A stretch of DNA of 64,000 nucleotides from Bacteroidota bacterium (GTDB lineage: Bacteria; Bacteroidota; Bacteroidia; Bacteroidales; FEN-979), in contig JAPLDJ010000024.1 in the NCBI GenBank assembly GCA_026391805.1, forward strand, positions 170,014 through 234,013, read 5' to 3'. Positions 30,397-51,557 of this stretch are shown here, one piece after another. The position numbers and the translations under genes are program-made. The notes under the pieces are model-generated. The model was not told the DNA's origin, did not search any database, and worked only from the letters and a program-made list of their open reading frames with translations. Numbering within the stretch: position 1 is the stretch's first letter; the number at the start of each line of letters is the position of its first letter.

Positions 30397-31593
30397 ATGA
30401 CCATAATCGAAGTCAACAATAAGAAAACCATCCGGGAATTCCTGGAGGTGCCGGCCATTATTTATAAAAATGATCCATACTGGGTCCGGCCCCTCGACCA
30501 CGAGGTCGAATCGATCTTTGACCAGAAGATCAACAGTTTCTTCACGCATGGCGAAGCGATACGGTGGGTAATGAAGGATGACAACGGCGCACTGACCGGG
30601 AGGGTAGCTGCTTTCATCAATAAAAACAAGGCGTTTACGTTCCCGCAGCCAACTGGTGGGATGGGTTTTTTTGAATGCACCGATAACCGGGACGCCGCCT
30701 TTCTGCTTTTTGACACCTGCCGCAACTGGCTGGAGGCGCGTGGCATGCAGGCCATGGATGGCCCGGTCAATTTCGGAGAGAACGATGTCAACTGGGGCCT
30801 GCTGGTGGACGGATTCATCCACCCCGGACTTGGGATGAATTACAACCCGCCCTATTATCGTGAGTTTTTTGAATCGTATGGGTTCAAATTCTATTTCGAG
30901 CAGGTCTCCAACCACCTGGACCTGACCAAACCATTTCCGGAACGGTTCTGGAAGATTGCAGAGTGGGTCCGGAACAAGCCGGAAAACAAGTTTCTTCATT
31001 TCACCTATAAAGAGACTGCAAAATTCATTCAAGATCTGAAAGAAATCTATGATGATGCCTGGGCTTTTCATGAAAGCTTTACCCCGCTGGAGGAAAAGCT
31101 TCTCATGAACACGTTGAAGAAGTCCCGCCCCTTCCTGGATGAAGAAATGATCTGGTTTGCCTATCACAACGGTGAGCCCGCCGCATTCCTGATCATGTTC
31201 CCCGACGTAAACCAGATCCTGAAACACCTGAATGGGAAACTGCACCTCTGGAACCAGCTCAAATTTCTTTACCTGAAAAAGAAAAAAACCATAACACGTG
31301 CCCGCATTGTCATCATGGGCGTAAAACCCAAATTCCAGCGTCACGGGCTCGAATCCGGGATCTTCTGGCACCTGAATGAAAAGATGAAGAAAAAGCCCCA
31401 ATTTACCGAACTTGAACTTTCCTGGGTGGGCGATTTTAACCCGAAGATGAGGGCTCTCCACGAAAGTGTGGGAGCCGTTTTTGGCAAACGCCACATTACT
31501 TACCGGAAATTATTTTCAGGAGAGATACCGGAGCAGCGTTCGACGATCATTCCGGTTGATACCAAGGAAAAAGCATTGCGGAATAAGCAATAA
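30397..31593 (+). CDS. GNAT-fold acyltransferase-like protein, distant paralog C of 12104..13231 and 14267..15388
   Basis: 398-aa ORF with the same architecture as paralogs A and B. It has an N-terminal F..VP...Y..DP.W..P block, a central GM.A.DGP.NF block, NYNPPYY, and a C-terminal GNAT motif-A-like GVKPKFQRHGLESGIFW. Confidence 0.65.
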   Translation: MTIIEVNNKKTIREFLEVPAIIYKNDPYWVRPLDHEVESIFDQKINSFFTHGEAIRWVMKDDNGALTGRVAAFINKNKAFTFPQPTGGMGFFECTDNRDAAFLLFDTCRNWLEARGMQAMDGPVNFGENDVNWGLLVDGFIHPGLGMNYNPPYYREFFESYGFKFYFEQVSNHLDLTKPFPERFWKIAEWVRNKPENKFLHFTYKETAKFIQDLKEIYDDAWAFHESFTPLEEKLLMNTLKKSRPFLDEEMIWFAYHNGEPAAFLIMFPDVNQILKHLNGKLHLWNQLKFLYLKKKKTITRARIVIMGVKPKFQRHGLESGIFWHLNEKMKKKPQFTELELSWVGDFNPKMRALHESVGAVFGKRHITYRKLFSGEIPEQRSTIIPVDTKEKALRNKQ

Positions 31594-31712: not shown

Positions 31713-33581
31713 ATGAAAAGATTTCTATTCTTGATCCTGGCTCTCGGAATGTCCGTGAGCATTTTTGCACAATTTGGGGCTACAAAGCAAAGGAATACAA
31801 ATGTAATTGCTCCTATGCACAAGACCACAAACATCGATCTCCCGGTGGTTGGTCAGCTCCCCCCGAACACCATTGTGTCAAATAAAAGCATTCTTGATGA
31901 TCCCATCAGCTCTGTGACAAGGTACGACCTCCAGAGCAACAGCAGCTCCAGTAATAGATTATACCTCTATGACGACGGAACGGTTGGAACTACCGCCACC
32001 TGGTCAACCCAGGATGCCTCCTGGACCGACCGCGGAACAGGTTATAACTATTGGGACGGTTCCGCTTTTGGCTCGTTACCCACTGCAAGAACCGAAAGTA
32101 TGAGAAGCGGCTGGCCAAGCTATTGTCCGTTTGGCGCTACCGGTGAAATGACCATCGCTCACCAGTCTGCTGGTCCGCTGATCATGTGCTCCAGGCCTGT
32201 AAAGGGAACCGGTGCATGGACAACGACCACGCTTCCGGCATTGCCTGCTACCATCCCTGTAATCCTTTGGCCGAGGGTTGTAACCAATGGCCCGACCCAT
32301 AACTACATCCACGTTATTGCTCTGACCGGCCCTACAGCCAACAGCGGAACAGTTTACAACGGCATGAACGGAGCCCTTCTCTATTCACGTTCACTCGATG
32401 GCGGAATTACCTTCTCTGCCTGGACACAACTTACAGGCATGACCTCTACAGAATACACCAGCTTTACCGCCGATGTTTATGCTTGGGCATGGCCAAAAGG
32501 TGATACCCTTGCTTTCACCACCGGGGATTCATGGCAGGATCAGTTCCTCATGAAATCAAACGACAATGGAGCCACCTGGACAAAAACCGTTATTTACAAT
32601 TCTCCTTACAACCTTGGCGGAAATTCCCCGGGCTTCTTCTTTTGCCCCGATGGAACAATGGGATGTGCATTGGATAACCAGGGAGTTGCTCATGTCGTCT
32701 TTGGTCTGCAGGCCGACAGCGGATCACCCACAGCCGGGTATTTCCGTCCCTATACCCAGGGTGTGGTTTACTGGAACGAACACATGACGGCATTGGATCC
32801 CAGCCTGGATCCGGATATCCTGTATCCAAATCATCAGTTTATTGGTTGGGTTAAGGATACGATGGTATTCTACCCGCCGACGGGCGTAACGTTAGGTTAC
32901 TACTATACTTCCCTGACCGATGAACCGTCACTTGTTATTGATAAAAACAATAAGGTTTTCCTGTCATTTGCAGGTGCTACCACCCTCGTTGACCCGAACA
33001 GCTATACCCTGCGCCACCTTTTTGGCAGGGATGGTTATATTGATGGTGATACGATCATGTGGCACAATGATACCCTTGTTGACATCACCGGCGACTGGAT
33101 CCAGTACAACTTTGCAGAATGCTACTATCCTTCAGCTTCCCCGACATCAGATGAGGCTTATGTTTATTATCTGTTCCAGAGGGATGATTATGGTGGATCT
33201 TATGTGAAGGGTTTGAACATTTCTCCCTATAACGGGCAAACTTCACCCGATGATAACTCCATAACCATGATTAAATGGGAGAAACCACTCTGGGTTGGAG
33301 TAAACGACAAACATGAAAAATTGACCTTCAACATCAGCCAGAACTACCCGAACCCGGTCAACGGTATGACCACGGTTAAGGTTTATACCCAGAATTCCGG
33401 CGACCTGTCGCTAAAGGTGACCAACCTTACCGGTCAGTCTCTCATGACAATGGAAAAAACCAATGTACTTGCCGGTGTTCAGATTTTCAACATCGATGCA
33501 AGCCAGCTGCCTTCCGGTATCTATTTCTATAGCGTAAAGCAGGGTGAAAAATCAATCACAAAGAAAATGATCGTTCAGTAA
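31713..33581 (+). CDS. Secreted Asp-box (BNR-like) repeat protein with T9SS C-terminal sorting domain, array paralog 1 of 6
   Basis: I placed the start at the ATG at 31713, giving the signal peptide MKRFLFLILALGMSVSIFAQ. Conserved blocks are RYDLQSN, WTDRGTGYNY, SRSLDGGITFSAW, SNDNGATWTKT and HVVFGLQADSGSPTAGYFRPYTQG. The C-terminal CTD reads QNYPNPVNG...GIYFYSVKQGEKSITKKMIVQ. Confidence 0.85.
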   Translation: MKRFLFLILALGMSVSIFAQFGATKQRNTNVIAPMHKTTNIDLPVVGQLPPNTIVSNKSILDDPISSVTRYDLQSNSSSSNRLYLYDDGTVGTTATWSTQDASWTDRGTGYNYWDGSAFGSLPTARTESMRSGWPSYCPFGATGEMTIAHQSAGPLIMCSRPVKGTGAWTTTTLPALPATIPVILWPRVVTNGPTHNYIHVIALTGPTANSGTVYNGMNGALLYSRSLDGGITFSAWTQLTGMTSTEYTSFTADVYAWAWPKGDTLAFTTGDSWQDQFLMKSNDNGATWTKTVIYNSPYNLGGNSPGFFFCPDGTMGCALDNQGVAHVVFGLQADSGSPTAGYFRPYTQGVVYWNEHMTALDPSLDPDILYPNHQFIGWVKDTMVFYPPTGVTLGYYYTSLTDEPSLVIDKNNKVFLSFAGATTLVDPNSYTLRHLFGRDGYIDGDTIMWHNDTLVDITGDWIQYNFAECYYPSASPTSDEAYVYYLFQRDDYGGSYVKGLNISPYNGQTSPDDNSITMIKWEKPLWVGVNDKHEKLTFNISQNYPNPVNGMTTVKVYTQNSGDLSLKVTNLTGQSLMTMEKTNVLAGVQIFNIDASQLPSGIYFYSVKQGEKSITKKMIVQ

Positions 33582-33594
33582 TTCTCATTTTCTG

Positions 33595-33629
33595 AAAAAA
33601 AAGCCCTGGTTCACCGGGGCTTTTTTTTT
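33595..33629 (+). terminator. Rho-independent terminator after paralog 1
   Basis: The sequence aaaaaaaaGCCCTGG-ttca-CCGGGGCttttttttt forms the stem and T-run. Confidence 0.7.
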
Positions 33630-33662
33630 GCATCATTCTTGAACAACTTCCGAAAAATTGTG

Positions 33663-33670
33663 TAAGTTTG
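33663..33670 (+). promoter_or_regulatory. Candidate -7 box (TAAGTTTG) for array paralog 2
   Basis: TAnnTTTG match 18 nt upstream of the ATG at 33688. Confidence 0.3.
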
Positions 33671-33687
33671 TTAAAAAAACGTTAACC

Positions 33688-35556
33688 ATGAAGAAATTTA
33701 CGCTTATTGCACTGGCACTCGGGATCCTTTTCACGGGTTCCGTTTTTGCAGGGAATGCTTATCGTCGGACAGCATCTCCGAAAGCCAAAATCACGGCACC
33801 AATGCCGGCCATCAAGTTTGTGCCGAAATCGGAAACAACCATCGGGGCGAACCCCGTTCCGCTGCCCTCCAACAAGCAGCTCCTGGATGATCCTTCCATC
33901 TGCCTGTCGAGGTATGACCTCATGACCAATTCTTCCGACCAGAACAGGATCTACCTGTTCCCCGACGGAACCATGGGGGGAACCACAATGATGTCACACC
34001 TTGACAATTTCACCGACCGGGGAACCGGGTACGATTATTTTGACGGCACAAGCTGGGGGCCATTGCCATCCACCCGCATCGAAAGTGAAAAAACAGGATG
34101 GCCATCCTATTGCCCCTTGGGCGCAAATGGCGAGGTCGTTGTGACTCATACAAATGCTGCCGGACTTATGGTTGCTACGCGGCCAACAAAGGGAACAGGA
34201 ACATGGACCCTCAATATCCTGGCAGGCCCTCCTGCAGCAGTCGATATCTCATGGCCCCGCACCGTGACCAACGGACCAAACCATACCTACATTCACATCC
34301 TGGCCGTAACGTATGTCACTTATGGCGGAATGACGAATCAAATCCTCTATTACCGGTCGCTCGACGGCGGCGCCACATGGGATAAAAATAATTTCATCAT
34401 CCCCGGCGTGGATACAACCGCCTGTACCAATTTCGGCGCTGATATTTATACCTGGGCTGAACCGCACGGCGATACGCTTGCCTTTACGGTCGGCGATTCC
34501 TGGCAGGACCAGTTTATCATGAAATCAAACGATAATGGTAACACCTGGACAAAAACCATTGTTTATCATTCGCCTTATAACAAGGGTGGCAATTCCCCCG
34601 ACTTTTTCTATTGCCCCGACGGAACCAGCGCCATTGCAATTGACAGATCGGGAATGGTCCATCTCACATTCGGTTTGCAGCAGGACAGCGGATCTCCCAC
34701 GGCCGGTTACTACCGTCCCTATACGCAGGGTCTCATTTACTGGAATGAAAGCATGCCACAACTCAGGGATGACCTGAACCCCGATTCGCTTTTTGCCACC
34801 GGGAACCTGGTTGGCTGGGTGAAAGACACGATGGTTTTCTACCCGCCTACCGGAGTAACACTATCAGCCTATTACTCTTCGCTTACCAGCAACCCGCAGC
34901 TTGTTATCGATAACAATGACAGGATCTTCTCCATCTGGGCAGGAGCCACCTCGCTGGTTGATCCGAATAATTATAACCTCCGCCATATATACGGACGCGA
35001 CGGGCACATCAACCCTGACGGAACCGTTTACTGGCTGAATGATTCCCTCGTTGATCTTACTGGCGACTGGATTCAGTACAATTTTGCGGAATGCATGTAT
35101 CCTTCTGCTTCACCGACCTCCGACGCAAATGTCTATATCCTCTTCATGAAAGACGACTACGGCGGATCTTATGTGAAGGGAATGAACATCTCCGGATATG
35201 CCGGTCAGACCTCTCCTTCAGATAACAATTTCATCGTACTCACATGGCAAAAACCTGTATATCCGCCGGTAGGTGTCAATAACATTGATCCGAAACCGGC
35301 TTTCTCGGTCGAACAGAACTATCCGAATCCGGTTCAGGACAGGACCACGATCAATGTTTACCTGCAGAACGCCGGCGACCTTTCCATCCAGGTAACAAAT
35401 ACTACCGGCCAGGTTGTCATGAAAGCACAAAAAGCTAATGCTCCTGCCGGTCTGACCCAATTTGTGGTTGAGGGAAACAGCCTTGCTCCCGGCGTATATT
35501 TCTACACCGTAAAACAGGGAACGCAAAGCATTACCAAAAAAATGATTGTTCAGTAA
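33688..35556 (+). CDS. Secreted Asp-box repeat protein with T9SS sorting domain, array paralog 2 of 6
   Basis: The start at 33688 gives the signal peptide MKKFTLIALALGILFTGSVFA. The conserved core is the same as in paralog 1 (RYDLMTN, FTDRGTGYDY, YRSLDGGATWDK, SNDNGNTWTKT). The CTD ends GVYFYTVKQGTQSITKKMIVQ. Confidence 0.85.
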   Translation: MKKFTLIALALGILFTGSVFAGNAYRRTASPKAKITAPMPAIKFVPKSETTIGANPVPLPSNKQLLDDPSICLSRYDLMTNSSDQNRIYLFPDGTMGGTTMMSHLDNFTDRGTGYDYFDGTSWGPLPSTRIESEKTGWPSYCPLGANGEVVVTHTNAAGLMVATRPTKGTGTWTLNILAGPPAAVDISWPRTVTNGPNHTYIHILAVTYVTYGGMTNQILYYRSLDGGATWDKNNFIIPGVDTTACTNFGADIYTWAEPHGDTLAFTVGDSWQDQFIMKSNDNGNTWTKTIVYHSPYNKGGNSPDFFYCPDGTSAIAIDRSGMVHLTFGLQQDSGSPTAGYYRPYTQGLIYWNESMPQLRDDLNPDSLFATGNLVGWVKDTMVFYPPTGVTLSAYYSSLTSNPQLVIDNNDRIFSIWAGATSLVDPNNYNLRHIYGRDGHINPDGTVYWLNDSLVDLTGDWIQYNFAECMYPSASPTSDANVYILFMKDDYGGSYVKGMNISGYAGQTSPSDNNFIVLTWQKPVYPPVGVNNIDPKPAFSVEQNYPNPVQDRTTINVYLQNAGDLSIQVTNTTGQVVMKAQKANAPAGLTQFVVEGNSLAPGVYFYTVKQGTQSITKKMIVQ

Positions 35557-35578
35557 AGGATTAAATAATGTTACTGGA

Positions 35579-35610
35579 GAGGCTGTCCATACGGATGGCC
35601 TCTTTTTTTT
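35579..35610 (+). terminator. Rho-independent terminator after paralog 2
   Basis: The sequence GAGGCtgtCCAT-acgg-ATGGCCTC is followed by a T8 run. Confidence 0.65.
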
Positions 35611-35654
35611 CCAGAATCTGAGCCATTCCCTTATCATTATACCTGAAAAATGCT

Positions 35655-35662
35655 TATATTTG
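35655..35662 (+). promoter_or_regulatory. Candidate -7 box (TATATTTG) for array paralog 3
   Basis: TAnnTTTG match 38 nt upstream of the ATG at 35700. Confidence 0.35.
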
Positions 35663-35699
35663 GTAGGACTTACAAAGCCATCAACCAAACAAAAGAGCC

Positions 35700-37559
35700 A
35701 TGAAAAAAATGTTCCTCCTGCTTCTGGTATTCGGTCTGACCACCGGAAGTTTTGCACAGTTCAATGCCCTGATGAAAAAACAGGCGCACATCACCGCGCC
35801 GGTACCCGTCATTGCGGCTGATCTTCCTGTTGCGGGCGCACAAACGCCTAATCCGATCGTTTCCAACAAAAGCATCATGGATGATCCCATTGTCTCCCAA
35901 ACAAGGTATGACCTTCAATCCAATTATACCAACCAGCGGAGGATCTATTATTTTCCTGACGGAACGATGGGAACTGCAGTCACCTGGTCAACCCAGGATG
36001 CAAGCTGGACCGACCGCGGAACCGGGTACAACTATTATGACGGCGGTGCCTGGGGCCCGTTACCCACAGCCAGGGTGGAAACCAGCCGGACGGGATGGCC
36101 AAACTACCTTCCGTTTGAAGTCGATGGTGAGATCATCGTTGCCCACCAGGCCATCGGCCCCCTGGTGATCAATAAGCGCGTACCCAAAGGAACCGGAGCA
36201 TGGACACAGTCGCTGATGCCAGCCCTTCCTTCCAACATTACCGCAATGTTCTGGCCACGGGCGGTGACCAATGGCCCAAATCACACCTACATTCACATCA
36301 TCGCGATGACATTGCCAACGGGCAACGGCGGACAAACCTATAATGGCATGGACGGTGCACTGCTCTATTGCCATTCACTCGATGGCGGCGCCACCTGGAC
36401 ACCGTGGACACAGCTGCCCGGGACAGATGGCAGTGTATATACCAACTTCACTGCAGATACTTATTCCTGGGCTGATCCTCATGGGGATACGCTGGCATTT
36501 GCATGCGGCGAATCCTGGATGGACCAGTTCATCATGAAATCGTTGGACAATGGTACAACCTGGACAAAGACCATCGTGCATCAATCCCTCTATAACCTGG
36601 GCGGAAATTCCCCGAATTTTTTCTACTGTCCCGACAATACGATGTCACTCGCACTGGATAACAGCAACAAGGTTCACCTTGTCTTCGGGCTGCAGTGCGA
36701 CAGCGGATCTCCCACCGCAGGATACTACCGACCCTATACGCAGGGCATCGTCTATTGGAACGAAGACATGCCACAGCTCAGGCAGGACCTGGATCCCGAT
36801 TCGCTCTATGCCAACGGTCAATATGTTGCGTGGGTGAAAGATACCATGGTGTTTTATCCGCCCAGTGGGGTTAGTTATTCTGCTTATTATACCTCCCTTA
36901 CCAGCAACCCGGAACTGATTATCGACAAAGACAACAGGGTCTTCCTGGTCTGGGCCGGGGAAACCTCGCTTGTTGACCCCAATTCATACATGTTGCGCCA
37001 TATCTATGGCAGGTTCGGTTATATCAATTCGGGCGTGATTATGTGGACGAATGATACCCTTACTGACCTTACCGGTGACTGGATTCAGTACAACTTCGCC
37101 GAGTGCATGTACCCCTCTGCCACACCAGCCTTATATTGTATAATAAAGGTGCTTTTTCAGCGGGATGATTACGGCGGATCCTATGTGAAAGGAATGAACG
37201 TATCAGGTTACCTTGGCCAGACATCACCGGATGACAATTATATGACAGTGATCTCATGGATGCCATGTACTTTCGGCATCGGCGAGAAGCAGGCCCAACC
37301 AACCTTCTCCGTTGCACAGAACTACCCGAATCCGGTTAACGGGATGACGACTATCGATGTTTACCTGCAGAACCCCGGGAACCTGTCGCTTGAAGTAACC
37401 AACCTCGCCGGGCAGAGTATCCTCAGGATGGAAAAAACAAATGTTCTTCCAGGCATGAGCCAGTTCGTGCTGGATGGCAGTACGCTTTCGCCGGGGGTTT
37501 ATTTCTATACGGTGAAGCAGGCTGGGCAGAGCATCACGAAGAAGATGGTGGTGCAGTAG
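35700..37559 (+). CDS. Secreted Asp-box repeat protein with T9SS sorting domain, array paralog 3 of 6
   Basis: 619-aa ORF with signal peptide MKKMFLLLLVFGLTTGSFAQ. It has the conserved core (RYDLQSN, WTDRGTGYNY, CHSLDGGATWTPW, SLDNGTTWTKT). The CTD ends GVYFYTVKQAGQSITKKMVVQ. Confidence 0.85.
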   Translation: MKKMFLLLLVFGLTTGSFAQFNALMKKQAHITAPVPVIAADLPVAGAQTPNPIVSNKSIMDDPIVSQTRYDLQSNYTNQRRIYYFPDGTMGTAVTWSTQDASWTDRGTGYNYYDGGAWGPLPTARVETSRTGWPNYLPFEVDGEIIVAHQAIGPLVINKRVPKGTGAWTQSLMPALPSNITAMFWPRAVTNGPNHTYIHIIAMTLPTGNGGQTYNGMDGALLYCHSLDGGATWTPWTQLPGTDGSVYTNFTADTYSWADPHGDTLAFACGESWMDQFIMKSLDNGTTWTKTIVHQSLYNLGGNSPNFFYCPDNTMSLALDNSNKVHLVFGLQCDSGSPTAGYYRPYTQGIVYWNEDMPQLRQDLDPDSLYANGQYVAWVKDTMVFYPPSGVSYSAYYTSLTSNPELIIDKDNRVFLVWAGETSLVDPNSYMLRHIYGRFGYINSGVIMWTNDTLTDLTGDWIQYNFAECMYPSATPALYCIIKVLFQRDDYGGSYVKGMNVSGYLGQTSPDDNYMTVISWMPCTFGIGEKQAQPTFSVAQNYPNPVNGMTTIDVYLQNPGNLSLEVTNLAGQSILRMEKTNVLPGMSQFVLDGSTLSPGVYFYTVKQAGQSITKKMVVQ

Positions 37560-37564
37560 CCCTT

Positions 37565-37630
37565 TCCACCACAATAGGCCCATTAGGTCACATTAGATCT
37601 ATTGCGTCCTAATGTGCCTACTGTGGTAAG
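37565..37630. repeat. Degenerate copy (A) of a long inverted-repeat element found 3' of the array paralogs
   Basis: The sequence is ccaccacaataggcc-cattaggtcacattagatctattgcgtcctaat-gtgcctactgtggta. It has the same word structure as copies B and C, but the arms are imperfect. Confidence 0.7.
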
Positions 37631-37672
37631 AAGAGCTATAAAGTACTAAACATCAAACAGACCTAATGTCAC

Positions 37673-37706
37673 AAGCGGATCGCCTTAGGGCTGATCCGCT
37701 TTTTTA
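37673..37706 (+). terminator. Rho-independent terminator after paralog 3
   Basis: The sequence AGCGGATC-gccttagggct-GATCCGCT is followed by tttttt. Confidence 0.7.
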
Positions 37707-37744
37707 TTGGAAGATGCATAACCCTATAGCAAACGGTCAGTGAA

Positions 37745-37817
37745 TAAATAACGAAAGATAATCGAAGGATAAACGTAAGATAAACGTAAGATAAACGTAA
37801 GATAAAAAAACGTAAAG
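37745..37817. repeat. 11-bp tandem repeat, about 6 units (3 perfect)
   Basis: The units read ataaataacgaaag ataatcgaagg ataaacgtaag x3 ataaaaaaacgtaaag. They end about 45 nt upstream of the paralog-4 -7 box. Confidence 0.85.
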
Positions 37818-37861
37818 CGACTTTCCCGGACAGCGCAGCTTCACTTTCGCGAATTTTTGAT

Positions 37862-37869
37862 TATATTTG
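37862..37869 (+). promoter_or_regulatory. Candidate -7 box (TATATTTG) for array paralog 4
   Basis: TAnnTTTG match 30 nt upstream of the ATG at 37899. Confidence 0.35.
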
Positions 37870-37898
37870 AGAGATGTAACAGTTTAAAAAATCCCGAC

Positions 37899-39809
37899 AT
37901 GAAAAAAATCCTCCTCTTTTCGTTTGCTTTGGTAATAGCGCTTGGTTCCTTTGCCCAGTATCGGAACCTTGTGAAAAAATACCCCAAAGCCGTCGCTCTT
38001 CTTACGCTGGGCAGTGCAACCGGTGTTGATCTGCCGGTCGCAGGATCCCAACCTTCCAGCAGTTACACCTCGAATAAAAGTGTTTTGGATGATCCTGTCA
38101 CGATGATCACGCGGTACGATGTTCAGTCCAACGGCGCCGCACCCCGCAGGTGCTATCGTTATCCCGACGGAACCATCGGAACAGCTGCGACATGGTCATC
38201 GCAGGATGCCTCCTGGACCGACCGCGGCACGGGATACAACTACTTTGACGGAGGGACCTGGGGCGCTCTGCCCGCAAGCAGGGTTGAAACTGTCAGAACA
38301 GGCTGGCCGAACTACTGTCCGTTTGGCACAGCGGGCGAGCTGATCATCGCCCATGAAGCTTCCGGCCCGCTGGTGATGAACACCCGCACAGTCAAAGGAA
38401 CCGGTGCATGGACTCAAACCCTTCTGCCCGCCCTGCCTACTACAATTCCCATGATGTTCTGGTCGAAGGCCGTGACCAGCGGCCCCAGTCATACCTATAT
38501 TCACGTGATTGCCCTGACTGGACCTACCGCGAACGGAGGACTGGTGTACAACGGCATGAACGGCGCCCTGGTCTATTCCCGTTCGCTCGACGGTGGAACT
38601 ACCTGGTCTAACTGGACCCAGCCCACAGACCTGACCTCTACCAACTACACTGCTTTCGGCAGCGATACCTATTGTTGGGCCGAGCCCAGAGGAGATACGC
38701 TGGCGTTCACCCTTGGCAGCGGCTTCTATGATCAGCTTCTACTGAAATCTACTGACAACGGGGCAACCTGGACAAAGACCGTCATCTGGCACTCGCTGTA
38801 TAACCTGGGCGGAAGTTCCCCGGGCTGGTTCTATGCTCCGGATGGCACCAGCGCGATCACACTCGACGGACGGGGAATGGCGCATGTTGTTTTCGGCCTG
38901 ACTTACGACAGCGGCACCAACACCTCCTGGTACTACAACATCATGGCCCAGGGGGTTGTTTACTGGAATGAGTCCCAGCCAACGCTCCGGCAGGACCTTG
39001 ACCCGGATTCGCTTTTTGCTTCCGGGAACCTAGTGGGATGGGTGCAGGATACGAATGTTTTCAATTTACCAGCCAACCAGATCTCCTACTGGGGGAAATC
39101 CCTGACATCTTTCCCCAACCTTGTGTGGGATTCATGCAAATCAGCCACTGAGAATTATGAACGTTTGTATGTGATCTTCTCTGGGGCAACCTCCCTGCTG
39201 GATGCGAACAATTACAACCTACGCCATATCTATGGCAGGGGAGCGTATCTTTCCCAGACCGGTCTTTCCTGGCTTGCCGATACACTTGCCGATATTACCG
39301 GCGATTGGATCCAGTACAATTTTTCAGAATGCATGTACCCGTCTACTGCACCTCGGTTCCGATCGGAAGGTGAAATTCCAATTCTCTTTCAGAAAGACGA
39401 TTATGGCGGATCGTATGTGCTGAGTACGCTGGCAACTGGAACCTGGCAGGGACAAACTTCGCCCGATGACAATTCCTTGACCCTGATCAAGTGGACAAAG
39501 CCAGGTGTTCCGTGCGGGTATCAGGAGGTAATTGAAAAACCGGGACAGCCTACCCTATCTGTCAGCCAGAACGTCCCGAATCCGTTCTCCGGCCAGACGG
39601 AGATCAATGTTTACCATCAGAACCCGGGGAATATCGGCCTTGTTGTGACCAATCTCACCGGCCAGAACGTTCTTTATTTGGAAAAGACAAATGTTCTCCC
39701 GGGTGTCAGCCAGTTCACGCTGGATGGAAGTACGCTGGCGCCGGGGGTTTATTTTTATACGGTGACGCAGGGAGCGGGGAGGATCACGAAGAAGATGATT
39801 GTTCAGTAG
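37899..39809 (+). CDS. Secreted Asp-box repeat protein with T9SS sorting domain, array paralog 4 of 6 (most divergent)
   Basis: The start at 37899 gives the signal peptide MKKILLFSFALVIALGSFAQ. The core is RYDVQSN, WTDRGTGYNY, SRSLDGGTTWSNW and STDNGATWTKT. The central region diverges (SGTNTSWYYNIMAQG replaces SGSPTAGYYRPYTQG). The CTD ends GVYFYTVTQGAGRITKKMIVQ. Confidence 0.85.
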   Translation: MKKILLFSFALVIALGSFAQYRNLVKKYPKAVALLTLGSATGVDLPVAGSQPSSSYTSNKSVLDDPVTMITRYDVQSNGAAPRRCYRYPDGTIGTAATWSSQDASWTDRGTGYNYFDGGTWGALPASRVETVRTGWPNYCPFGTAGELIIAHEASGPLVMNTRTVKGTGAWTQTLLPALPTTIPMMFWSKAVTSGPSHTYIHVIALTGPTANGGLVYNGMNGALVYSRSLDGGTTWSNWTQPTDLTSTNYTAFGSDTYCWAEPRGDTLAFTLGSGFYDQLLLKSTDNGATWTKTVIWHSLYNLGGSSPGWFYAPDGTSAITLDGRGMAHVVFGLTYDSGTNTSWYYNIMAQGVVYWNESQPTLRQDLDPDSLFASGNLVGWVQDTNVFNLPANQISYWGKSLTSFPNLVWDSCKSATENYERLYVIFSGATSLLDANNYNLRHIYGRGAYLSQTGLSWLADTLADITGDWIQYNFSECMYPSTAPRFRSEGEIPILFQKDDYGGSYVLSTLATGTWQGQTSPDDNSLTLIKWTKPGVPCGYQEVIEKPGQPTLSVSQNVPNPFSGQTEINVYHQNPGNIGLVVTNLTGQNVLYLEKTNVLPGVSQFTLDGSTLAPGVYFYTVTQGAGRITKKMIVQ

Positions 39810-39821
39810 CTTATTTCACCA

Positions 39822-39890
39822 CAATAGGCACAATAGAACACAATAGAATCTAATGTGAACTAATGTGCCTATTGTGGTGAAAAGGGCAAC
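39822..39890. repeat. Long inverted-repeat element, copy B (perfect 18-bp arms, 33-nt spacer)
   Basis: The arms are TTTCACCACAATAGGCAC and GTGCCTATTGTGGTGAAA. The spacer is built from cacaatag / ctaatgtg words. The element begins 13 nt after the paralog-4 stop. Confidence 0.85.
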
Positions 39891-39923
39891 CAGGGTAAAT
39901 CCCCGATAAAAAACACCATTGAA

Positions 39924-41795
39924 ATGAAAAGAATAATAGTCACTCTTTTCGCTCTAATCCTTGCCATCAGCGCCTCCGCCCAGTTCAAGGCATTAATGCA
40001 AAAGAAGGCAAATGTCATTGCCCCGATGCAAAAAAATCCAAACATCGATCTCCCGGTGGTTGGCGAACTTCCTGCCAACATCTATGTTTCGAACAAAACC
40101 ATGCTGACCGATCCGGTATCATCCGTAACACGATACGACCTTCAGTCGAACGCTTCCAACCTGAGGAGAATCCGTCTCTTTCCCGACGGGACGATCGGGA
40201 CAACGGCAACCTGGTCGCAGCAGGATGCAAGCTGGACGGACCGGGGAACGGGGTACAACTATTATGACGGCAGTTCATTCGGGCCTCTTCCCACGTCCAG
40301 GATCGAAGACCGGAGGACCGGTTGGCCATCATATTGTTTTTTTGGACCTAACGGAGAGATGACCATCGCACATCAATCTAGTGGTCCATTGGTAATGTGC
40401 TCAAGGCCCGTGAAAGGTTCCGGCACATGGACGACAAAACTACTTCCTGCATTGCCAGCCACCATCCCGGTAATCCTCTGGCCCAGGGCGGTCACAAATG
40501 GGCCGGATCATACCTGTATACACATCATTGCACTTACAGCCCCTACAGCAAACGGAGGCCTGATCTATAACGGTATGAACGGAGCCATCATTTATTCGCG
40601 TTCGCTTGACGGCGGCACAACATTCTCCGACTGGATCCAGCTTCCAGGGATGACCTCTTCAGAATATACAAGTTTTACAGCGGACATCTATTCCTTTGCA
40701 GAGCCAAAGGGAGATACCCTTGCATTTACGGTCGGTGATTGCTTTCAGGATCAATTCCTGATGAAATCGACCGATAACGGAACGACATGGACCAAGACCA
40801 TAATCTATAATTCTCCTTACAATCATGGCGGTAATTCACCCAATTTCTTCTATTGCCCCGATGGCACCATGTCAGTTGCCCTGGACAACCAGGGGATTGC
40901 ACATGTCGTTTTTGGCCTGCAGCAGGACAGCGGATCGCCGACTGCCTCATATTATCGTCCGTATACGCAAGGAATTATTTACTGGAATGAGACGATGCCT
41001 GAGCTCAGGCAGGATCTCAACCCGGATTCACTTTTTCTTTCCGGGAGCTATGTTGCATGGGTGAAAGATACCAATGTTTTCCACCTGCCTTCAGGTGTAT
41101 CATTAGGAGAGTACTATTTCTCGCTTACCTCTAACCCGGAACTGGTGATCGATAAAAATAACAGGATGTTTCTGATCTGGTCAGGCGAGACTACCCTTGT
41201 TGATGCGAACAATTATACCCTGCGCCACATTTTTAGCAGGGATGCGTGGATCACACCGGCAGAAAACCTTTGCTGGCATACGGATACATTGGTTGATCTT
41301 ACCGCAGACTGGATCCAGTATCATGTTGCGGATTGCATGTATCCTTCAGCCTCACCCACATCCGATGATTCTGTTTATATTCTTTTCCAGAAAGATAAAT
41401 ATGGCGGAAATTATGTAATGGGGATTGGTACTCAGAACTCCCAGACGTCACCTGATGATAACTTTATTACGCTTATCAAATGGGGAAAACCATCGTGGTC
41501 TCTGCCGATCGGGATGAATGAAAGCCATGTGAAGCCCGTTTTTTCTGTCGGTCAAAACATTCCCAATCCGGTAACTGGCTTGACAAAGGTCAATGTTTTC
41601 ATGCAGAATGGAGGTGATCTGTCACTTACAGTGACGAGTCTTACCGGGCAAACAATGATAAGCATAAGAAAAAATAATGTCCTCCCGGGGGTAAGCCAGT
41701 TTAACATTGATGGCAGCACACTGCCGCCGGGGGGTTATTTTTATACGGTAACGCAGGGAGGGGAGAGGGTCACGAAGAAGATGATAGTCCAATAG
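39924..41795 (+). CDS. Secreted Asp-box repeat protein with T9SS sorting domain, array paralog 5 of 6
   Basis: 623-aa ORF with signal peptide MKRIIVTLFALILAISASAQ and the conserved core. The CTD ends GGYFYTVTQGGERVTKKMIVQ. No TAnnTTTG box is visible upstream. Confidence 0.85.
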   Translation: MKRIIVTLFALILAISASAQFKALMQKKANVIAPMQKNPNIDLPVVGELPANIYVSNKTMLTDPVSSVTRYDLQSNASNLRRIRLFPDGTIGTTATWSQQDASWTDRGTGYNYYDGSSFGPLPTSRIEDRRTGWPSYCFFGPNGEMTIAHQSSGPLVMCSRPVKGSGTWTTKLLPALPATIPVILWPRAVTNGPDHTCIHIIALTAPTANGGLIYNGMNGAIIYSRSLDGGTTFSDWIQLPGMTSSEYTSFTADIYSFAEPKGDTLAFTVGDCFQDQFLMKSTDNGTTWTKTIIYNSPYNHGGNSPNFFYCPDGTMSVALDNQGIAHVVFGLQQDSGSPTASYYRPYTQGIIYWNETMPELRQDLNPDSLFLSGSYVAWVKDTNVFHLPSGVSLGEYYFSLTSNPELVIDKNNRMFLIWSGETTLVDANNYTLRHIFSRDAWITPAENLCWHTDTLVDLTADWIQYHVADCMYPSASPTSDDSVYILFQKDKYGGNYVMGIGTQNSQTSPDDNFITLIKWGKPSWSLPIGMNESHVKPVFSVGQNIPNPVTGLTKVNVFMQNGGDLSLTVTSLTGQTMISIRKNNVLPGVSQFNIDGSTLPPGGYFYTVTQGGERVTKKMIVQ

Positions 41796-41980
41796 CTCCG
41801 AAGGAGCGTCATCTGAATAACCATGTGCGAAGCACATGGCGGGTAAAACAGCAACAAACTCAGCCCGGATGGGCTGAATCTTAAGGTTCAACCCCTTCGG
41901 GGCTGGGGGTTGTTACATACTGGATCGTCACCGTGGATTCCATCCACGGTTATTGAGATTGTGCCACTTCGCGGCAATTT
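41796..41980. repeat. Cluster of short GC-rich hairpins (REP/BIME-like mosaic) between paralogs 5 and 6
   Basis: Successive stem-loops are GCTCC-gaa-GGAGC, CCATGTGC-gaa-GCACATGG, TCAGCCC-ggat-GGGCTGA, CCCC-ttcg-GGGG and ACCGTGGAT-tcc-ATCCACGGT. Confidence 0.7.
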
Positions 41981-42031
41981 ATAATTGGTTGATTAAGCAT
42001 TGGTGAGATTAGAAAAAATCCAACAACCAAT

Positions 42032-43903
42032 ATGAAAAAGATTTTATTCATCTTTTTAGCCTTTGGTTTGACCATTGGCAGTCAAGCGCAATTCAAGGCA
42101 TTAATGCAAAAAAAGGCAAATGTCATCGCCCCGATGCAAAAAAATCAAAACATCGATCTCCCGGTGGTTGGCGAACTTCCTGGCAACGGCTATGTTTCCA
42201 ATAAAAACATCCTGGCTGATCCTGTTTCATCTGTGACAAGGTACGACCTGCAGACCAATTCTTCTAACCAGCGTAGGATTTACCTGTTCCCTGACGGGAC
42301 GGTCGGGACGACCGTGACTTGGTCACAACAGGATGCTTCGTGGACTGATCGCGGAACCGCATATAACTATTTCGATGGAACTTCTTTCGGACCATTACCG
42401 ACCTCAAGGGTCGAACAGGAAAAGACAGGATGGCCCGAGTACCACCCGTTCGGCCAAAATGGAGAACTGATCATTGCCCACGAGAGCACTTTCAATGGCC
42501 CACTTGTGATGAACACACGCCAGGTAAAAGGAAACGGTTCCTGGACCGAGAAACTGTTACCCGCACTTCCGGCTACCATACCGGTTATGATGTGGCCTAG
42601 GGTTGTAACAAACGGTCCTGATCATACCAATATTCATGTGATAGCATTGACCGGCCCAAGTTCGAACGGAGGAATCCCCTATAACGGTATGAATGGTGCC
42701 ATCGTCTATTCCAGATCACTGGACGGCGGTGCAACATTCTCCGACTGGATCCAGCTTCCCGGAATGACTTCATCCGAATACAAGGCTTTCACAGCCGATA
42801 TCTATTCGTTTGCCGAGCCAAAAGGCGATACACTTGCCTTCACTGTCGGTGATTCCTGGCAGGATCAGTTCCTGATGAAATCAACCGACAACGGAACGAC
42901 ATGGACGAAAACGATCATCTACAAATCCCCCTATAATCTTGGAGGAAATTCTCCAGATTGGTTCTATTGCCCTGACGGTACGATGTCAGTTGCCCTGGAC
43001 AACCAGGGAATTGCACATGTCGTTTTCGGTTTGCAGCAAGACAGCTTCTCGTATTATGCCCCATATTACCGGCCGTATACACAGGGTATTGTTTACTGGA
43101 GTGAGACGATGCCTGAACTCAGGGAGGATCTTGATCCCGATTCTCTCTTTGCCAACGGACAGTATGTAGCATGGATAAAAGATACCATGGTTTTCTACCC
43201 GTCATTGGGCGTTTCACTGCAGACATTTTATACATCGCTCACGAGCAACCCGGAGCTTGTCATTGATAATGACAACAGAGTGTTCCTGGTATGGGCGGGA
43301 GTGACTTCACTGGTCGATTGGTATGACCGTATGTTACGCCATATCTTTGGACGGGATGGTTATATCACCCCATCAGGGGCTGTTTACTGGCACAATGATA
43401 CACTTGTTGATCTGACTTCCGACTGGGTTCAGTACCATTACGCTGAGTGCATGTATCCATCGGCTTCGCCAACAACAGATAATTCCGTTTACATTCTTTT
43501 CCAGAAAGATGAATACGCGGGCTCATATGTTAAACTAATCAATTCATACAATGGCCCTCCGCCTAGTGATAATTTTATCACGCTTTTACAATGGCAAAAA
43601 CCCGACTGGCCGACAATGGGCGTTGTGAAGCAACCTGAAAAGCCTCTTCTTTCTGTTTCCCAGAACTTCCCTAACCCGGTTTCGGGTGCAACGACCATAA
43701 ATGTTTACCATCAAAATCCTGGCACACTCACGCTTGAAGTGACCAACCTCACCGGACAGAACATCCTTCATATGGAAAAGACAAATGTTCTCCCGGGTGT
43801 CAACCAGTTTACTGTTGATGGAAGCAATCTGCCACCAGGAGTTTACTTCTATACGGTGATAATGGAAGGGGAGAAGATCACGAAGAAAATGGTTGTTCAA
43901 TAG
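42032..43903 (+). CDS. Secreted Asp-box repeat protein with T9SS sorting domain, array paralog 6 of 6
   Basis: 623-aa ORF with signal peptide MKKILFIFLAFGLTIGSQAQ and the conserved core. The CTD ends GVYFYTVIMEGEKITKKMVVQ. Confidence 0.85.
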   Translation: MKKILFIFLAFGLTIGSQAQFKALMQKKANVIAPMQKNQNIDLPVVGELPGNGYVSNKNILADPVSSVTRYDLQTNSSNQRRIYLFPDGTVGTTVTWSQQDASWTDRGTAYNYFDGTSFGPLPTSRVEQEKTGWPEYHPFGQNGELIIAHESTFNGPLVMNTRQVKGNGSWTEKLLPALPATIPVMMWPRVVTNGPDHTNIHVIALTGPSSNGGIPYNGMNGAIVYSRSLDGGATFSDWIQLPGMTSSEYKAFTADIYSFAEPKGDTLAFTVGDSWQDQFLMKSTDNGTTWTKTIIYKSPYNLGGNSPDWFYCPDGTMSVALDNQGIAHVVFGLQQDSFSYYAPYYRPYTQGIVYWSETMPELREDLDPDSLFANGQYVAWIKDTMVFYPSLGVSLQTFYTSLTSNPELVIDNDNRVFLVWAGVTSLVDWYDRMLRHIFGRDGYITPSGAVYWHNDTLVDLTSDWVQYHYAECMYPSASPTTDNSVYILFQKDEYAGSYVKLINSYNGPPPSDNFITLLQWQKPDWPTMGVVKQPEKPLLSVSQNFPNPVSGATTINVYHQNPGTLTLEVTNLTGQNILHMEKTNVLPGVNQFTVDGSNLPPGVYFYTVIMEGEKITKKMVVQ

Positions 43904-44040: not shown

Positions 44041-44700
44041 ATGTTAGGTAAGGAGACTAAAATCCTCATCGGAAAGGAGATCCGGCTGGAGCTGAAGCAG
44101 AAATACGTGCTGAACGGCATCCTGCTTTACCTTGTCTCAACCATATTCGTAACTTATCTTGCATTCGACAAGATCATCAGTACCGATACCTGGAACTCGC
44201 TCTTCTGGATCATCCTGCTGTTTGTTGCGGTGAACGGGATCTCGAAAAGCTTTGTACAGGAAAGCCCGGCGCGACACCTCTATTATTATACGGTTGCAAG
44301 CCCGCAGGCGATCCTGCTTTCAAAGGTCATCTACAACCTCCTGCTGATGACCATCCTGTCCGTATTCTCCTTTGTCTTTTTCATCGTACTGATGGGAAAC
44401 CTGGTGGTGAACCTGCCTCTGTTCCTGGTTACGCTCATTCTCGGCAGCCTCGGACTGGCATCCATCCTGACGATGGTGGCGGCGATCGCTTCACGTGCCA
44501 GCAACAACTTTTCCCTGATCGCCATCCTGAGCTTTCCCATCGTCCTGCCACTTTTGGGAACCCTGATGAAGGTCTCGAAAAGTGCGCTATCTGCTTCGGA
44601 ATGGACGGGAAACTATGGCTTTATCGTCATCCTCCTCACCATCAACATCACCGTGATCGTGCTGGCATATCTGTTATTTCCGTACCTTTGGCGGGACTAA
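44041..44700 (+). CDS. ccmB: Heme exporter protein B (CcmB-like ABC permease)
   Basis: 219-aa, 6-TM ORF. Size, topology and position (immediately before ccmC-D-E) fit CcmB. Sequence resemblance to E. coli CcmB is loose. Confidence 0.65.
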   Translation: MLGKETKILIGKEIRLELKQKYVLNGILLYLVSTIFVTYLAFDKIISTDTWNSLFWIILLFVAVNGISKSFVQESPARHLYYYTVASPQAILLSKVIYNLLLMTILSVFSFVFFIVLMGNLVVNLPLFLVTLILGSLGLASILTMVAAIASRASNNFSLIAILSFPIVLPLLGTLMKVSKSALSASEWTGNYGFIVILLTINITVIVLAYLLFPYLWRD

Positions 44701-50609: not shown

Positions 50610-51557
50610 ATGAAAAGGATCTTTACGCTTTCAGTGCTTGTTTTAGGCATGTTTACTTACAGTTTCGGTCAGCAGAATGTCCGGGGCGGAACGTTTGAAT
50701 ACTGGAAATACAACGCCACCCACAATTTCTACCAGCCCGACAGCAGCATCTTCTGGACGCTGAACCAGCTCGACACCATTCCCACTCCCCCGGGCATCAC
50801 CGCTTATCCCTGCGATACTGCTCATAACGGAAGTAAATCCGTGCGGGTGGTCACAAGGAAGATCGATTTGCTGGATATTATCATCCCGGGGGTTATCGGG
50901 ACGATCAATATCAAGTGGTCCACTTCGATGGCTGTTATCGGAATCCCCTATCCCTACGGTACGACAAAGCCGGTACAGTTTTCTGGCTTCTATCAATCCT
51001 ATCCGCTGAGCGGGGATTCATCGGCCGCAGTTCTTCTTCTTTCAAAATGGAATTCAACATTTCACCGCCGCGATACGCTGGCTTATAACCGGTTGGTTTT
51101 CTTTGGAACCGTGAACAGCTGGACGCAGTTTGACATTCCCGTCACCTACCGCGATCCGGTTACAATCCCTGACTCACTCACGATTCTTTTATTATCGTGC
51201 GGCGGATTCGACGCGGGAAATATGTTTGGAAGCGTCGGAACAGTTGGCAGCACAGCGCTCTTTGACGATGTTAACCTGACCGGTGTGAACGGATTTCCGC
51301 TGGTTCTTATGCCTGATGTGTCAGTTAAGCTTTCCCCGAATCCTGCGAAGGATTTCATGAACATTCAGCTTGGCGAAGAGATCACGAACGGGTATTTTGA
51401 AGTTTATGATGCCCAGGCAAAGCTGATGCACCGGTTCCAGATTAATGGTACTTCGCAGCAGATCAGTGTCGGGGACTTATCATCAGGCATGTATTATTAT
51501 AAACTTACAGGGCAGGGCAAACTGCTCAACTCCGGCACTTTTGCCATAAGTAAATGA
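50610..51557 (+). CDS. T9SS C-terminal sorting-domain protein, N-terminal PCMD-like domain (function unknown)
   Basis: 315-aa ORF with a signal peptide. The C-terminal CTD reads LSPNPAKDFMNIQL...SSGMYYYKLTGQGKLLNSGTFAISK. The N-terminal GGTFEYW... region recalls the putative carbohydrate-metabolism domain often found next to TonB-dependent receptors. Confidence 0.6.
   Translation: MKRIFTLSVLVLGMFTYSFGQQNVRGGTFEYWKYNATHNFYQPDSSIFWTLNQLDTIPTPPGITAYPCDTAHNGSKSVRVVTRKIDLLDIIIPGVIGTINIKWSTSMAVIGIPYPYGTTKPVQFSGFYQSYPLSGDSSAAVLLLSKWNSTFHRRDTLAYNRLVFFGTVNSWTQFDIPVTYRDPVTIPDSLTILLLSCGGFDAGNMFGSVGTVGSTALFDDVNLTGVNGFPLVLMPDVSVKLSPNPAKDFMNIQLGEEITNGYFEVYDAQAKLMHRFQINGTSQQISVGDLSSGMYYYKLTGQGKLLNSGTFAISK

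Follow-up and report, generated by a model that had tools for sequence, protein, structure and literature searches.

We analyzed a tandem array of six genes for secreted Asp-box proteins (positions 31713–43903) within a 64,000-nucleotide stretch of DNA (hereafter, the window) from a Bacteroidota metagenome-assembled genome (MAG) of the order Bacteroidales (GenBank assembly GCA_026391805.1, contig JAPLDJ010000024.1, positions 170,014 to 234,013 of the forward strand). The six consecutive open reading frames (ORFs), here called P1 to P6, lie on the same (+) strand and encode proteins of 619–636 aa: P1 at 31713..33581 (622 aa), P2 at 33688..35556 (622 aa), P3 at 35700..37559 (619 aa), P4 at 37899..39809 (636 aa), P5 at 39924..41795 (623 aa), and P6 at 42032..43903 (623 aa). 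The start of each gene was placed at the ATG that opens its signal peptide; in P1, whose frame is open from 31593, this ATG (31713) lies 3′ of a TAnnTTTG box. P1 comprises a signal peptide, a linker of approximately 40 aa, an Asp-box propeller, and a C-terminal domain (CTD) of the type A sorting class of the T9SS (type IX secretion system). In P5, the copy used for modeling, the signal peptide spans residues 1–19, the disordered linker 20–60, the propeller 61–526 (nucleotides 40104–41501), and the CTD sandwich 541–623. An initial annotation had described six same-strand genes of this size, each with a signal peptide, shared blocks, and two Asp-boxes, and our ORF calls, alignment, and motif scan agreed with it.

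End-to-end alignment of the six proteins gave a mean column identity of 72%, with full-length identities to P1 of 57–68% and pairwise core identities of 54–76%. The core of P6 is nearest that of P5 (76%), that of P4 is the most divergent (54–62%), and P2 has the most divergent N-terminus. Each paralog contains exactly two strict Asp-boxes (S.D.G..[WFY]), of the forms SLDGGxT[FW] and SxDNGxTW, at the ends of predicted strands 222–227 and 275–282 (residue numbers are those of P5 throughout), and degenerate copies occur at 161–169 and 439–451. Such hairpins in strand 3–4 loops characterize the Asp-box propeller superfamily, to which we assign the paralogs. A third Asp-box (RxSxDGGxTW) is intact in the family consensus and has decayed in the window paralogs at 439–451; this decayed box is the region after VDPN.Y.LRH that had been flagged as the most variable, which it is in our alignment. 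The reported replacement of a central block in P4 is likewise visible: the blade-5 hairpin block has been exchanged (SGTNTSWYYNIMAQG) and a 7-aa insertion is present. The central block of P6 is partly replaced.

The type A T9SS tail that had been assigned to all six proteins was recovered by both profiles used, with Por_Secre_tail (PF18962) matching each protein at 36–51 bits (cut-off 27) and TIGR04183 at 35–50 bits (cut-off 23), i.e., a sorting domain of approximately 75 aa above the curated cut-offs. Profile comparison with the solved CTDs 8GLK and 8GLJ gave weak matches (E 0.004 and 0.03), AlphaFold2 predicted a β-sandwich at residues 540–622, and all six C-termini read ITKKM[IV]VQ. At the other end, each protein carries an N-terminal Sec/signal peptidase I signal peptide, as read from the sequence, with MKK or MKR in the n-region and a hydrophobic core, followed by a site resembling A-x-A. 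The peptides had been described as ending in FAQ or QAQ; the peptides themselves stand, with small corrections to this ending: P2 ends in ...VFAGN without Q and P5 in ...ASAQ. According to the Q-rule of Bacteroidetes, Q is residue +1 of the mature protein (PMC5837995), and the Q of "FAQ," found at +1 in five of the six paralogs, is most likely this residue rather than the end of the signal peptide. Of the ORFs annotated around the array (approximately 17–56 kb of the window), none was recognized as a T9SS machinery gene.

The AlphaFold2 model of full-length P5, built from a 66-sequence alignment (predicted local distance difference test [pLDDT] 85, predicted template modeling score [pTM] 0.78), shows the signal peptide as a helix at the N-terminus, followed by a disordered linker (38–60), an all-β core, and a C-terminal sandwich. 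The isolated core (residues 61–526) was modeled with a pLDDT of 92.9 and a pTM of 0.93. Its DSSP string contains approximately 28–29 strands, parsed as seven four-stranded blades (83–122, 132–173, 183–240, 256–295, 305–355, 402–458, and 470–521), with the N-terminal strand 65–69 closing blade 7 and a helical insertion at 356–400. The core is probably a seven-bladed propeller, the blade count being taken from DSSP strings rather than from coordinates. Foldseek searches against the PDB also ranked seven-bladed structures first: members of PL42, formerly GH145 (5MUM, 5MVH, 4IRT, and 5MUL; template modeling [TM] scores TMq 0.48–0.52 and TMt approximately 0.58), FoRham1 (7ESL; TMq approximately 0.49, TMt 0.53), the PL25 ulvan lyase (5UAS; both approximately 0.5), and the Photorhabdus PLL/PHL lectins (TMq approximately 0.5, TMt 0.61–0.68), whereas six-bladed GH33 sialidases reached a TMq of 0.37–0.42 with a lower TMt. 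Identity was 10–12% throughout and the root-mean-square deviation (RMSD) was 6–9 Å; these matches place the fold class but not the family. Model, Foldseek, and CTD profiles agree with the earlier description of the proteins as β-propeller-like Asp-box T9SS cargo.

Sequence and profile searches of Pfam, NCBIfam, and the PDB assigned no family to residues of approximately 60–530 (the core of approximately 465 aa); apart from the CTD, they brought up nothing but Asp-box matches that stayed below threshold. This accords with the earlier remark that neither a family nor a catalytic signature could be assigned, and neither GH33 nor GH74 nor any other characterized family was matched with confidence. 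In the paralogs, Pfam BNR by itself stayed under its threshold owing to the shortness of the model (12 residues), and neither BNR_2 (PF13088) nor BNR_4 (PF15892) matched any of the six at E ≤ 1. Weak BNR_2 matches were present in 49 of 74 diverse relatives (best E 1.7e-9), mostly below the cut-off (31.4 bits) and out of register, with different blades corresponding to different parts of the model, which indicates generic similarity among Asp-box blades rather than family membership. BNR_4 matched one of the 74 relatives (E 0.017). The propeller core is most likely an undescribed family within the Asp-box propellers.

This family is widespread. A word-indexed search found 2347 relatives, of which the top 120 are all approximately 620 aa long, with the CTD as their sole annotation and "T9SS type A sorting domain-containing protein" as the best name. 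An exhaustive search with the core returned 1198 cluster representatives at 50% identity (514 with E < 1e-30), and a scan of one genome per species gave 447 confirmed matches among candidate stretches; 76 loci were kept. Nearly all of these loci belong to uncultured Bacteroidales/Bacteroidota MAGs, including Prolixibacteraceae, Lentimicrobiaceae, and Draconibacterium, with a few labeled otherwise (e.g., "Omnitrophica" for locus L051), and the record titles of family sources mention fen, permafrost-region, lake, and digester samples. Two complete MAG chromosomes carry the family, one with a single copy (L060) and the other with four (L073). Copy number across related genomes, a comparison that the initial annotation had proposed, was counted with hidden Markov models: 54 of the 76 loci have two or more copies in tandem, on the same strand except in two, with a maximum of six (L022).

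In multidomain relatives the propeller is the sole large domain. Its partners are BACON, PKD, cohesin/dockerin, CarboxypepD_reg, fn3, CARDB, Ig_7, and Flg_new_2 domains, and almost never a known catalytic domain. Protein P0121 (2070 aa) contains three propeller copies and P0122 (1712 aa) contains two, with CarboxypepD_reg domains between the copies. The middle copy of P0121 has lost R107, R126, and H150 and is possibly degenerate and non-functional.

We surveyed conservation across 129 instances of the domain, sampled from cluster representatives of ≤50% identity, and in a 74-sequence alignment (A3; mean column identity 33%). The residues Y71, D72, Q74, R82, R107, R126, E128, E145, H150, H200, Y224, D254, Y256, D276, D313, D321, H327, Y353, W354, E356, E470, and D491 are approximately 90–100% conserved, with Y215 (approximately 86%) and R188 (approximately 81%) less so. 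All six window paralogs keep the family-wide conserved residues except for Q74M in P2 and P187S and P346I in P4. The conserved polar set numbers approximately 20 residues and includes eight carboxylates, three to four Arg, all in blades 1–2, and three His (H150, H200, and H327), no pair of which is conserved at a spacing of approximately 20 residues in the linear sequence.

These polar residues come from different blades, and their pattern is not repeated blade by blade. When the blades of the model are oriented by the Asp-boxes, most conserved polar residues outside structural motifs fall in the predicted D-to-A and B–C loops or at the top ends of strands. In known Asp-box propellers, function is confined to the top face, and the strand 3–4 loops with the Asp-boxes are on the other side (PMC2716378). 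On this topology, most of the conserved polar residues would lie on the face opposite the Asp-boxes, where they may form a single elaborate site around the central funnel. As the conserved residues are not repeated, they point to one site rather than to the multiple inter-blade sites of PLL lectins; a single funnel site would be the architecture of propeller enzymes and not that of repeat-site lectins.

The probable single site, the accessory modules that accompany the propeller, the observation that most characterized Asp-box propellers are glycosidases (PMC2716378), and the position of PL42 and PL25 among the nearest folds together favor a glycan-active enzyme. PL42 and PL25 act on glucuronate-containing glycans (PMC8377490). 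We consider the chances about even that the six proteins act on glycans as enzymes, either secreted or anchored to the surface, that they form part of an undescribed family of Asp-box propellers, and that they are subfunctionalized by substrate; the binding or hydrolytic role suggested at the outset stays a sensible class of function. By analogy with the PL42, PL25, and GH33 classes, they would work as T9SS-exported Asp-box propeller carbohydrate-active enzymes. Each protein would pass through Sec and lose its signal peptide to signal peptidase I, probably with an N-terminal Gln left in five of the six copies, and the type A CTD would then take it across the outer membrane via T9SS for release or surface anchoring. 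The functional part would be the Asp-box propeller of approximately 465 aa, probably seven-bladed, in which the approximately 20 conserved polar residues would form one active site at the central funnel, on the face opposite the Asp-boxes, and cleave a complex glycan by hydrolysis or β-elimination. The substrate may contain an acidic sugar, as suggested by the three conserved Arg and eight conserved carboxylates, although this reading of the residue inventory is speculative.

Several points weigh against enzymatic activity. The Pfam, NCBIfam, and PDB searches yielded no sequence-level link to a characterized enzyme family; the fold matches are distant, and the non-catalytic PLL/PHL lectins score equal to the enzymes. 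The His–His pair of the PL42/PL25 type (approximately 20 residues apart), with its Tyr/Arg (PMC8377490), is not evident in the linear pattern, and the clustering of conserved residues on the top face derives from topology rather than from measured distances. No polysaccharide utilization locus (PUL), SusC/D pair, sugar transporter, or regulator lies beside the array, here or in related loci, where the context is housekeeping. Finally, the three-domain arrangement seen in P0121 is also common for binding modules.

The main rival is that the proteins are non-catalytic surface lectins or adhesins, whose propeller would serve solely to bind a glycan or some other ligand, for attachment to particles, other cells, or a polymer, and whose paralogs would widen the ligand range. 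We regard this rival as possible but rather unlikely. It draws support from the Photorhabdus PLL/PHL lectins (5C9L, 5MXE, 6RFZ, and 8Q7U), secreted sugar-binding propellers that rank with the best fold matches and reach the top TMt values, from the lack of both a recognizable catalytic signature and a PUL context, and from the repetition of the propeller within polypeptides and its joining to cohesin/dockerin, PKD, and Ig-like modules typical of adhesins. Propeller lectins, however, repeat their binding motif between blades, and a one-off conserved pattern is unusual for them: PLL/PHL proteins are approximately 340 aa long, with regular repeated blades and multiple inter-blade sites, whereas the window family is irregular and combines one non-repeated conserved constellation with Asp-boxes. 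The conservation of approximately 20 polar residues at 90–100% among sequences of 30–50% identity also argues against a purely binding role, as does the rarity with which the propeller is fused to a catalytic domain that it could serve as a binding module. If the proteins are lectins after all, they represent a new Asp-box binding module.

An enzymatic role could alternatively come from divergent membership of a characterized family, namely the GH33 sialidases or the PL42/PL25 lyases, which we consider improbable. The Asp-boxes, the weak BNR_2 matches among relatives, and the PL42 structures at the top of the Foldseek results are in line with it, and FoRham1 also bears Asp-box/BNR_4 motifs (PMC8377490). 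The PL42 L-rhamnose-α-1,4-D-glucuronate lyases/rhamnosidases, namely BT3686, BACCELL_00856, BACINT_00347, and FoRham1 (5MUK/5MUL, 5MVH, 5MUM, and 7ESL), are the top matches (E approximately 1e-9, TMq approximately 0.5, TMt 0.53–0.59); these secreted, glycan-active proteins from Bacteroides have seven blades, Asp-box motifs, and an active site on the anterior face (PMC8377490). Nevertheless, identity to them is 10–12% at an RMSD of 7–9 Å, the window core is approximately 70–90 aa larger and contains the helical insertion at 356–400, the His85/His105/Arg/Tyr apparatus of PL42 is not recognizable in the window sequences, and PL42 genes reside in PULs, whereas the window genes do not. With no BNR_4 match in the paralogs and this low identity to the structures, we rejected membership of PL42 by sequence. 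The PL25 ulvan lyase PLSV_3936 (5UAM/5UAS) is likewise seven-bladed, with a fold-level match (TM approximately 0.5), and acts on acidic glycans by His/Tyr/Arg chemistry (PMC8377490), but it has no sequence similarity to the window proteins, and its His123, His143, Tyr188, and Arg204 have no evident counterparts in their linear pattern.

The six-bladed GH33/BNR_2 proteins share with the window family the Asp-boxes in strand 3–4 hairpins and the weak BNR_2 matches of its relatives, and the three conserved Arg together with Tyr, Glu, and Asp recall the sialidase inventory. In the window proteins, however, the Arg are all in blades 1–2 and not spread around the ring, and the strand count fits seven blades. 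None of the six paralogs gave a collinear BNR_2 match above 31.4 bits or contains the sialidase RIP motif, and the TM scores to sialidases (0.37–0.42) compare with 0.5–0.68 for seven-bladed folds; BNR_2/GH33 membership was rejected accordingly.

The genomic position of the array is conserved. On its left lies a GNAT-family gene (Acetyltransf_1; 30397..31593, +), seen in 31 loci with a median distance to the array of 108 bp, and on its right lies ccmB (44041..44700, +), seen in 23 loci with a median distance of 52 bp and followed by ccmC and ccmE. The upstream neighbors in the window are GNAT, LptF/G, and two GT4 glycosyltransferase genes, and the downstream neighbors are ccmB, ccmC, ccmE, and UbiD; as first noted, ccmB directly follows the array, and no SusC/D, regulator, or T9SS gene adjoins it. 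The order GT4-GT4-LptF/G-GNAT-[array]-ccmB-ccmC-ccmE-UbiD (26324–48099) is syntenic in many Bacteroidales MAGs, including loci L002, L006–L008, L012, L047, L048, L069, L070, and L076. In the 13 loci where both flanks were captured, the slot contains two to four copies, compared with six in the window, and the number of array genes is the only variable. We rejected a functional operon with these neighbors, as GNAT, LptF/G, GT4, ccmBCE, and UbiD are housekeeping genes, and read their conservation as synteny rather than a functional link.

A second family of approximately 670 aa, with a signal peptide, Asp-boxes, and a very similar CTD, adjoins the arrays in approximately 17 loci (e.g., L023:3918-5990, L009:4963-6981, and L063:14806-16812) and is absent from the window. 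Its relationship to the main family is remote (hhalign probability 87%, E 4e-6), and it likewise has no Pfam annotation.

Taking the enzyme reading together with this conserved slot, we tentatively propose, with rather less than even confidence, that the six proteins are founding members of a new CAZy-type family (glycoside hydrolase or polysaccharide lyase), a T9SS-exported seven-bladed Asp-box propeller probably acting on acidic glycans and encoded in arrays of two to six genes in a non-PUL GNAT–ccmB slot across uncultured anaerobic Bacteroidales. Approximately 1200 clusters at 50% identity have no Pfam or NCBIfam model, solved structure, or assigned function. If the proteins are enzymes, they would add a CAZy family and a case of multi-paralog secreted glycan-active enzymes deployed outside PULs; a family of this kind would point to extracellular processing of glycans that does not follow the Sus/PUL paradigm. 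The conserved non-PUL tandem organization is unusual in these environmentally important uncultured Bacteroidales, and six paralogs with a conserved site offer a natural specificity series for biochemistry. The family, with its proposed function, is a candidate for experimental work, and the current view is neither contradicted nor overturned by it.

The six copies duplicated long ago and are subject to purifying selection, and their ends show minor homogenization. By the Nei–Gojobori method, pS, the proportion of synonymous differences, is saturated (0.69–0.77), dN is 0.20–0.43, and dN/dS is at most 0.10–0.19 for every pair, including the closest, P5/P6. The nearest relatives of P3 and P4 are genes of other MAGs (L002 and L004, respectively; 72% core identity each), each closer than any sister paralog, which indicates that these duplications predate the split of the lineages. 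The copies differ from each other at 29–43% of nucleotides, and their spacers are unique. Exchange between paralogs is visible at the gene ends only. A gene-conversion tract in the linker-coding part of P5 (39981–40074, +) and P6 (42089–42182, +) has approximately 96% identity over 94 nt against a background of 71%, and contains a 23-nt exact block common to P1, P5, and P6 (31830–31852, 40041–40063, and 42149–42171) that occurs in none of the 76 related loci. At the 3′ end, nucleotide identity of the CTD and 3′ flank is 72–82% among P3, P4, and P6 (P6 being nearest P4, at 82%), compared with 50–57% in pairs with P1 or P2 and 65–67% in pairs with P5; this grouping of P3, P4, and P6 conflicts with that of the cores (P5, P6, and P1). 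Saturated pS, low dN/dS, the outside relatives of P3 and P4, the conserved slot, and the retained polar residues indicate old, conserved paralogs that are probably subfunctionalized. The six duplicates would keep the site, differ in the surrounding loops, and most likely share out related substrates or linkages.

This history leaves little room for the diversification or antigenic variation first proposed, in which rapid divergence or recombination among the copies would vary what is exposed at the surface as a means of escaping phage, predators, or immunity. The proteins are surface or secreted cargo encoded in a tandem array, short exchange tracts do occur (23 nt in P1/P5/P6, 94 nt in P5/P6, and the CTD and 3′ flank in P3/P4/P6), and some variation is patchy, as in the central block of P4. 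However, the exchange affects the linker and CTD rather than the exposed propeller, and invertible promoters, silent cassettes, and long identical repeats were not found. In addition to the low dN/dS, the conserved polar residues, and the closer relatives of P3 and P4 in other genomes, the slot and the presence of several copies in it persist in other genomes at identities as low as approximately 35%, with two to four copies in the same slot of 13 other genomes. Antigenic variation is therefore largely refuted, and we consider it very improbable. An assembly artefact (repeat expansion or chimera), conceivable as tandem repeats in a MAG are error-prone, is refuted for practical purposes by the 29–43% nucleotide differences, the distinct intergenic regions, promoters, and terminators, and the recurrence of two- to six-copy arrays elsewhere (54 of 76 independent loci, one of which, L073, is a complete MAG chromosome).

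For gene organization, the nearest analogy is the array of KLIKK proteases in Tannerella forsythia, also a six-gene cluster of T9SS cargo with a conserved C-terminal tail (PMC4404884). There, unrelated catalytic domains are joined to one near-identical CTD; here, by contrast, whole proteins are paralogous, and their CTDs are 54–73% identical, with exchange at the CTD ends and a common ITKKM[IV]VQ tail.

With regard to expression, TAnnTTTG boxes, which resemble the Bacteroidetes −7 box, precede P1 (31659..31666, +), P2 (33663–33670, +), P3 (35655–35662, +), and P4 (37862–37869, +), 18–47 nt upstream of the start codons. The initial annotation had pointed these out, and the motif scan located all four, but the motif occurs in the whole window at chance level (33 observed, 31.6 expected), so that the positions alone are suggestive. 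P5 and P6 have no such box, and a sigma-70 scan found sites no more numerous than in shuffled sequence. Of the intrinsic terminators noted after P1–P3, those after P1 (33593..33630, +) and P2 (35576–35605, +) were recovered by the terminator scan, and that after P3 (37676–37708, +) was read by eye and was not listed by the scan. Judging from these signals, P1–P4 at least seem to have transcription units of their own. The 11-nt sequence gataaacgtaa, repeated in tandem (three copies plus a variant copy; 37768–37815), lies in the long spacer just before the TAnnTTTG box of P4.

A near-perfect hairpin of approximately 65 nt directly follows the stop codons of P3 (37567–37628, +), P4 (39817–39879, +), and P6 (43911–43973, +), with arms CACCACAATAGGC...GCCTATTGTGGTG, folding energies of −31, −40, and −41 kcal/mol, and z-scores of −6 to −12. 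Beyond these three copies the window has none, nor do the 76 related loci; like the 23-nt conversion block, the hairpin is therefore genome-specific rather than a conserved regulatory element. The hairpin is probably an mRNA 3′ stabilizer or terminator stem, and may be an element resembling repetitive extragenic palindromes that was duplicated or converted together with the gene ends. Rfam and tRNA scans of the window returned nothing. The P5–P6 spacer (41796–42031) contains approximately five short GC-rich hairpins (e.g., tcagcccggatgggctga and aaccccttcggggctggggtt; fold z-score −3.5), with no Rfam match.

Two further ORFs of the window may be mentioned. A small, unrelated T9SS CTD protein (315 aa; 50610–51557) has no other Pfam domain, and homologues lie at a similar distance in 11 related loci. 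An ORF at 23074–24537 (−), taken from the sequence as histidyl-tRNA synthetase, carries a low-complexity insertion rich in Gly, Glu, and Arg.

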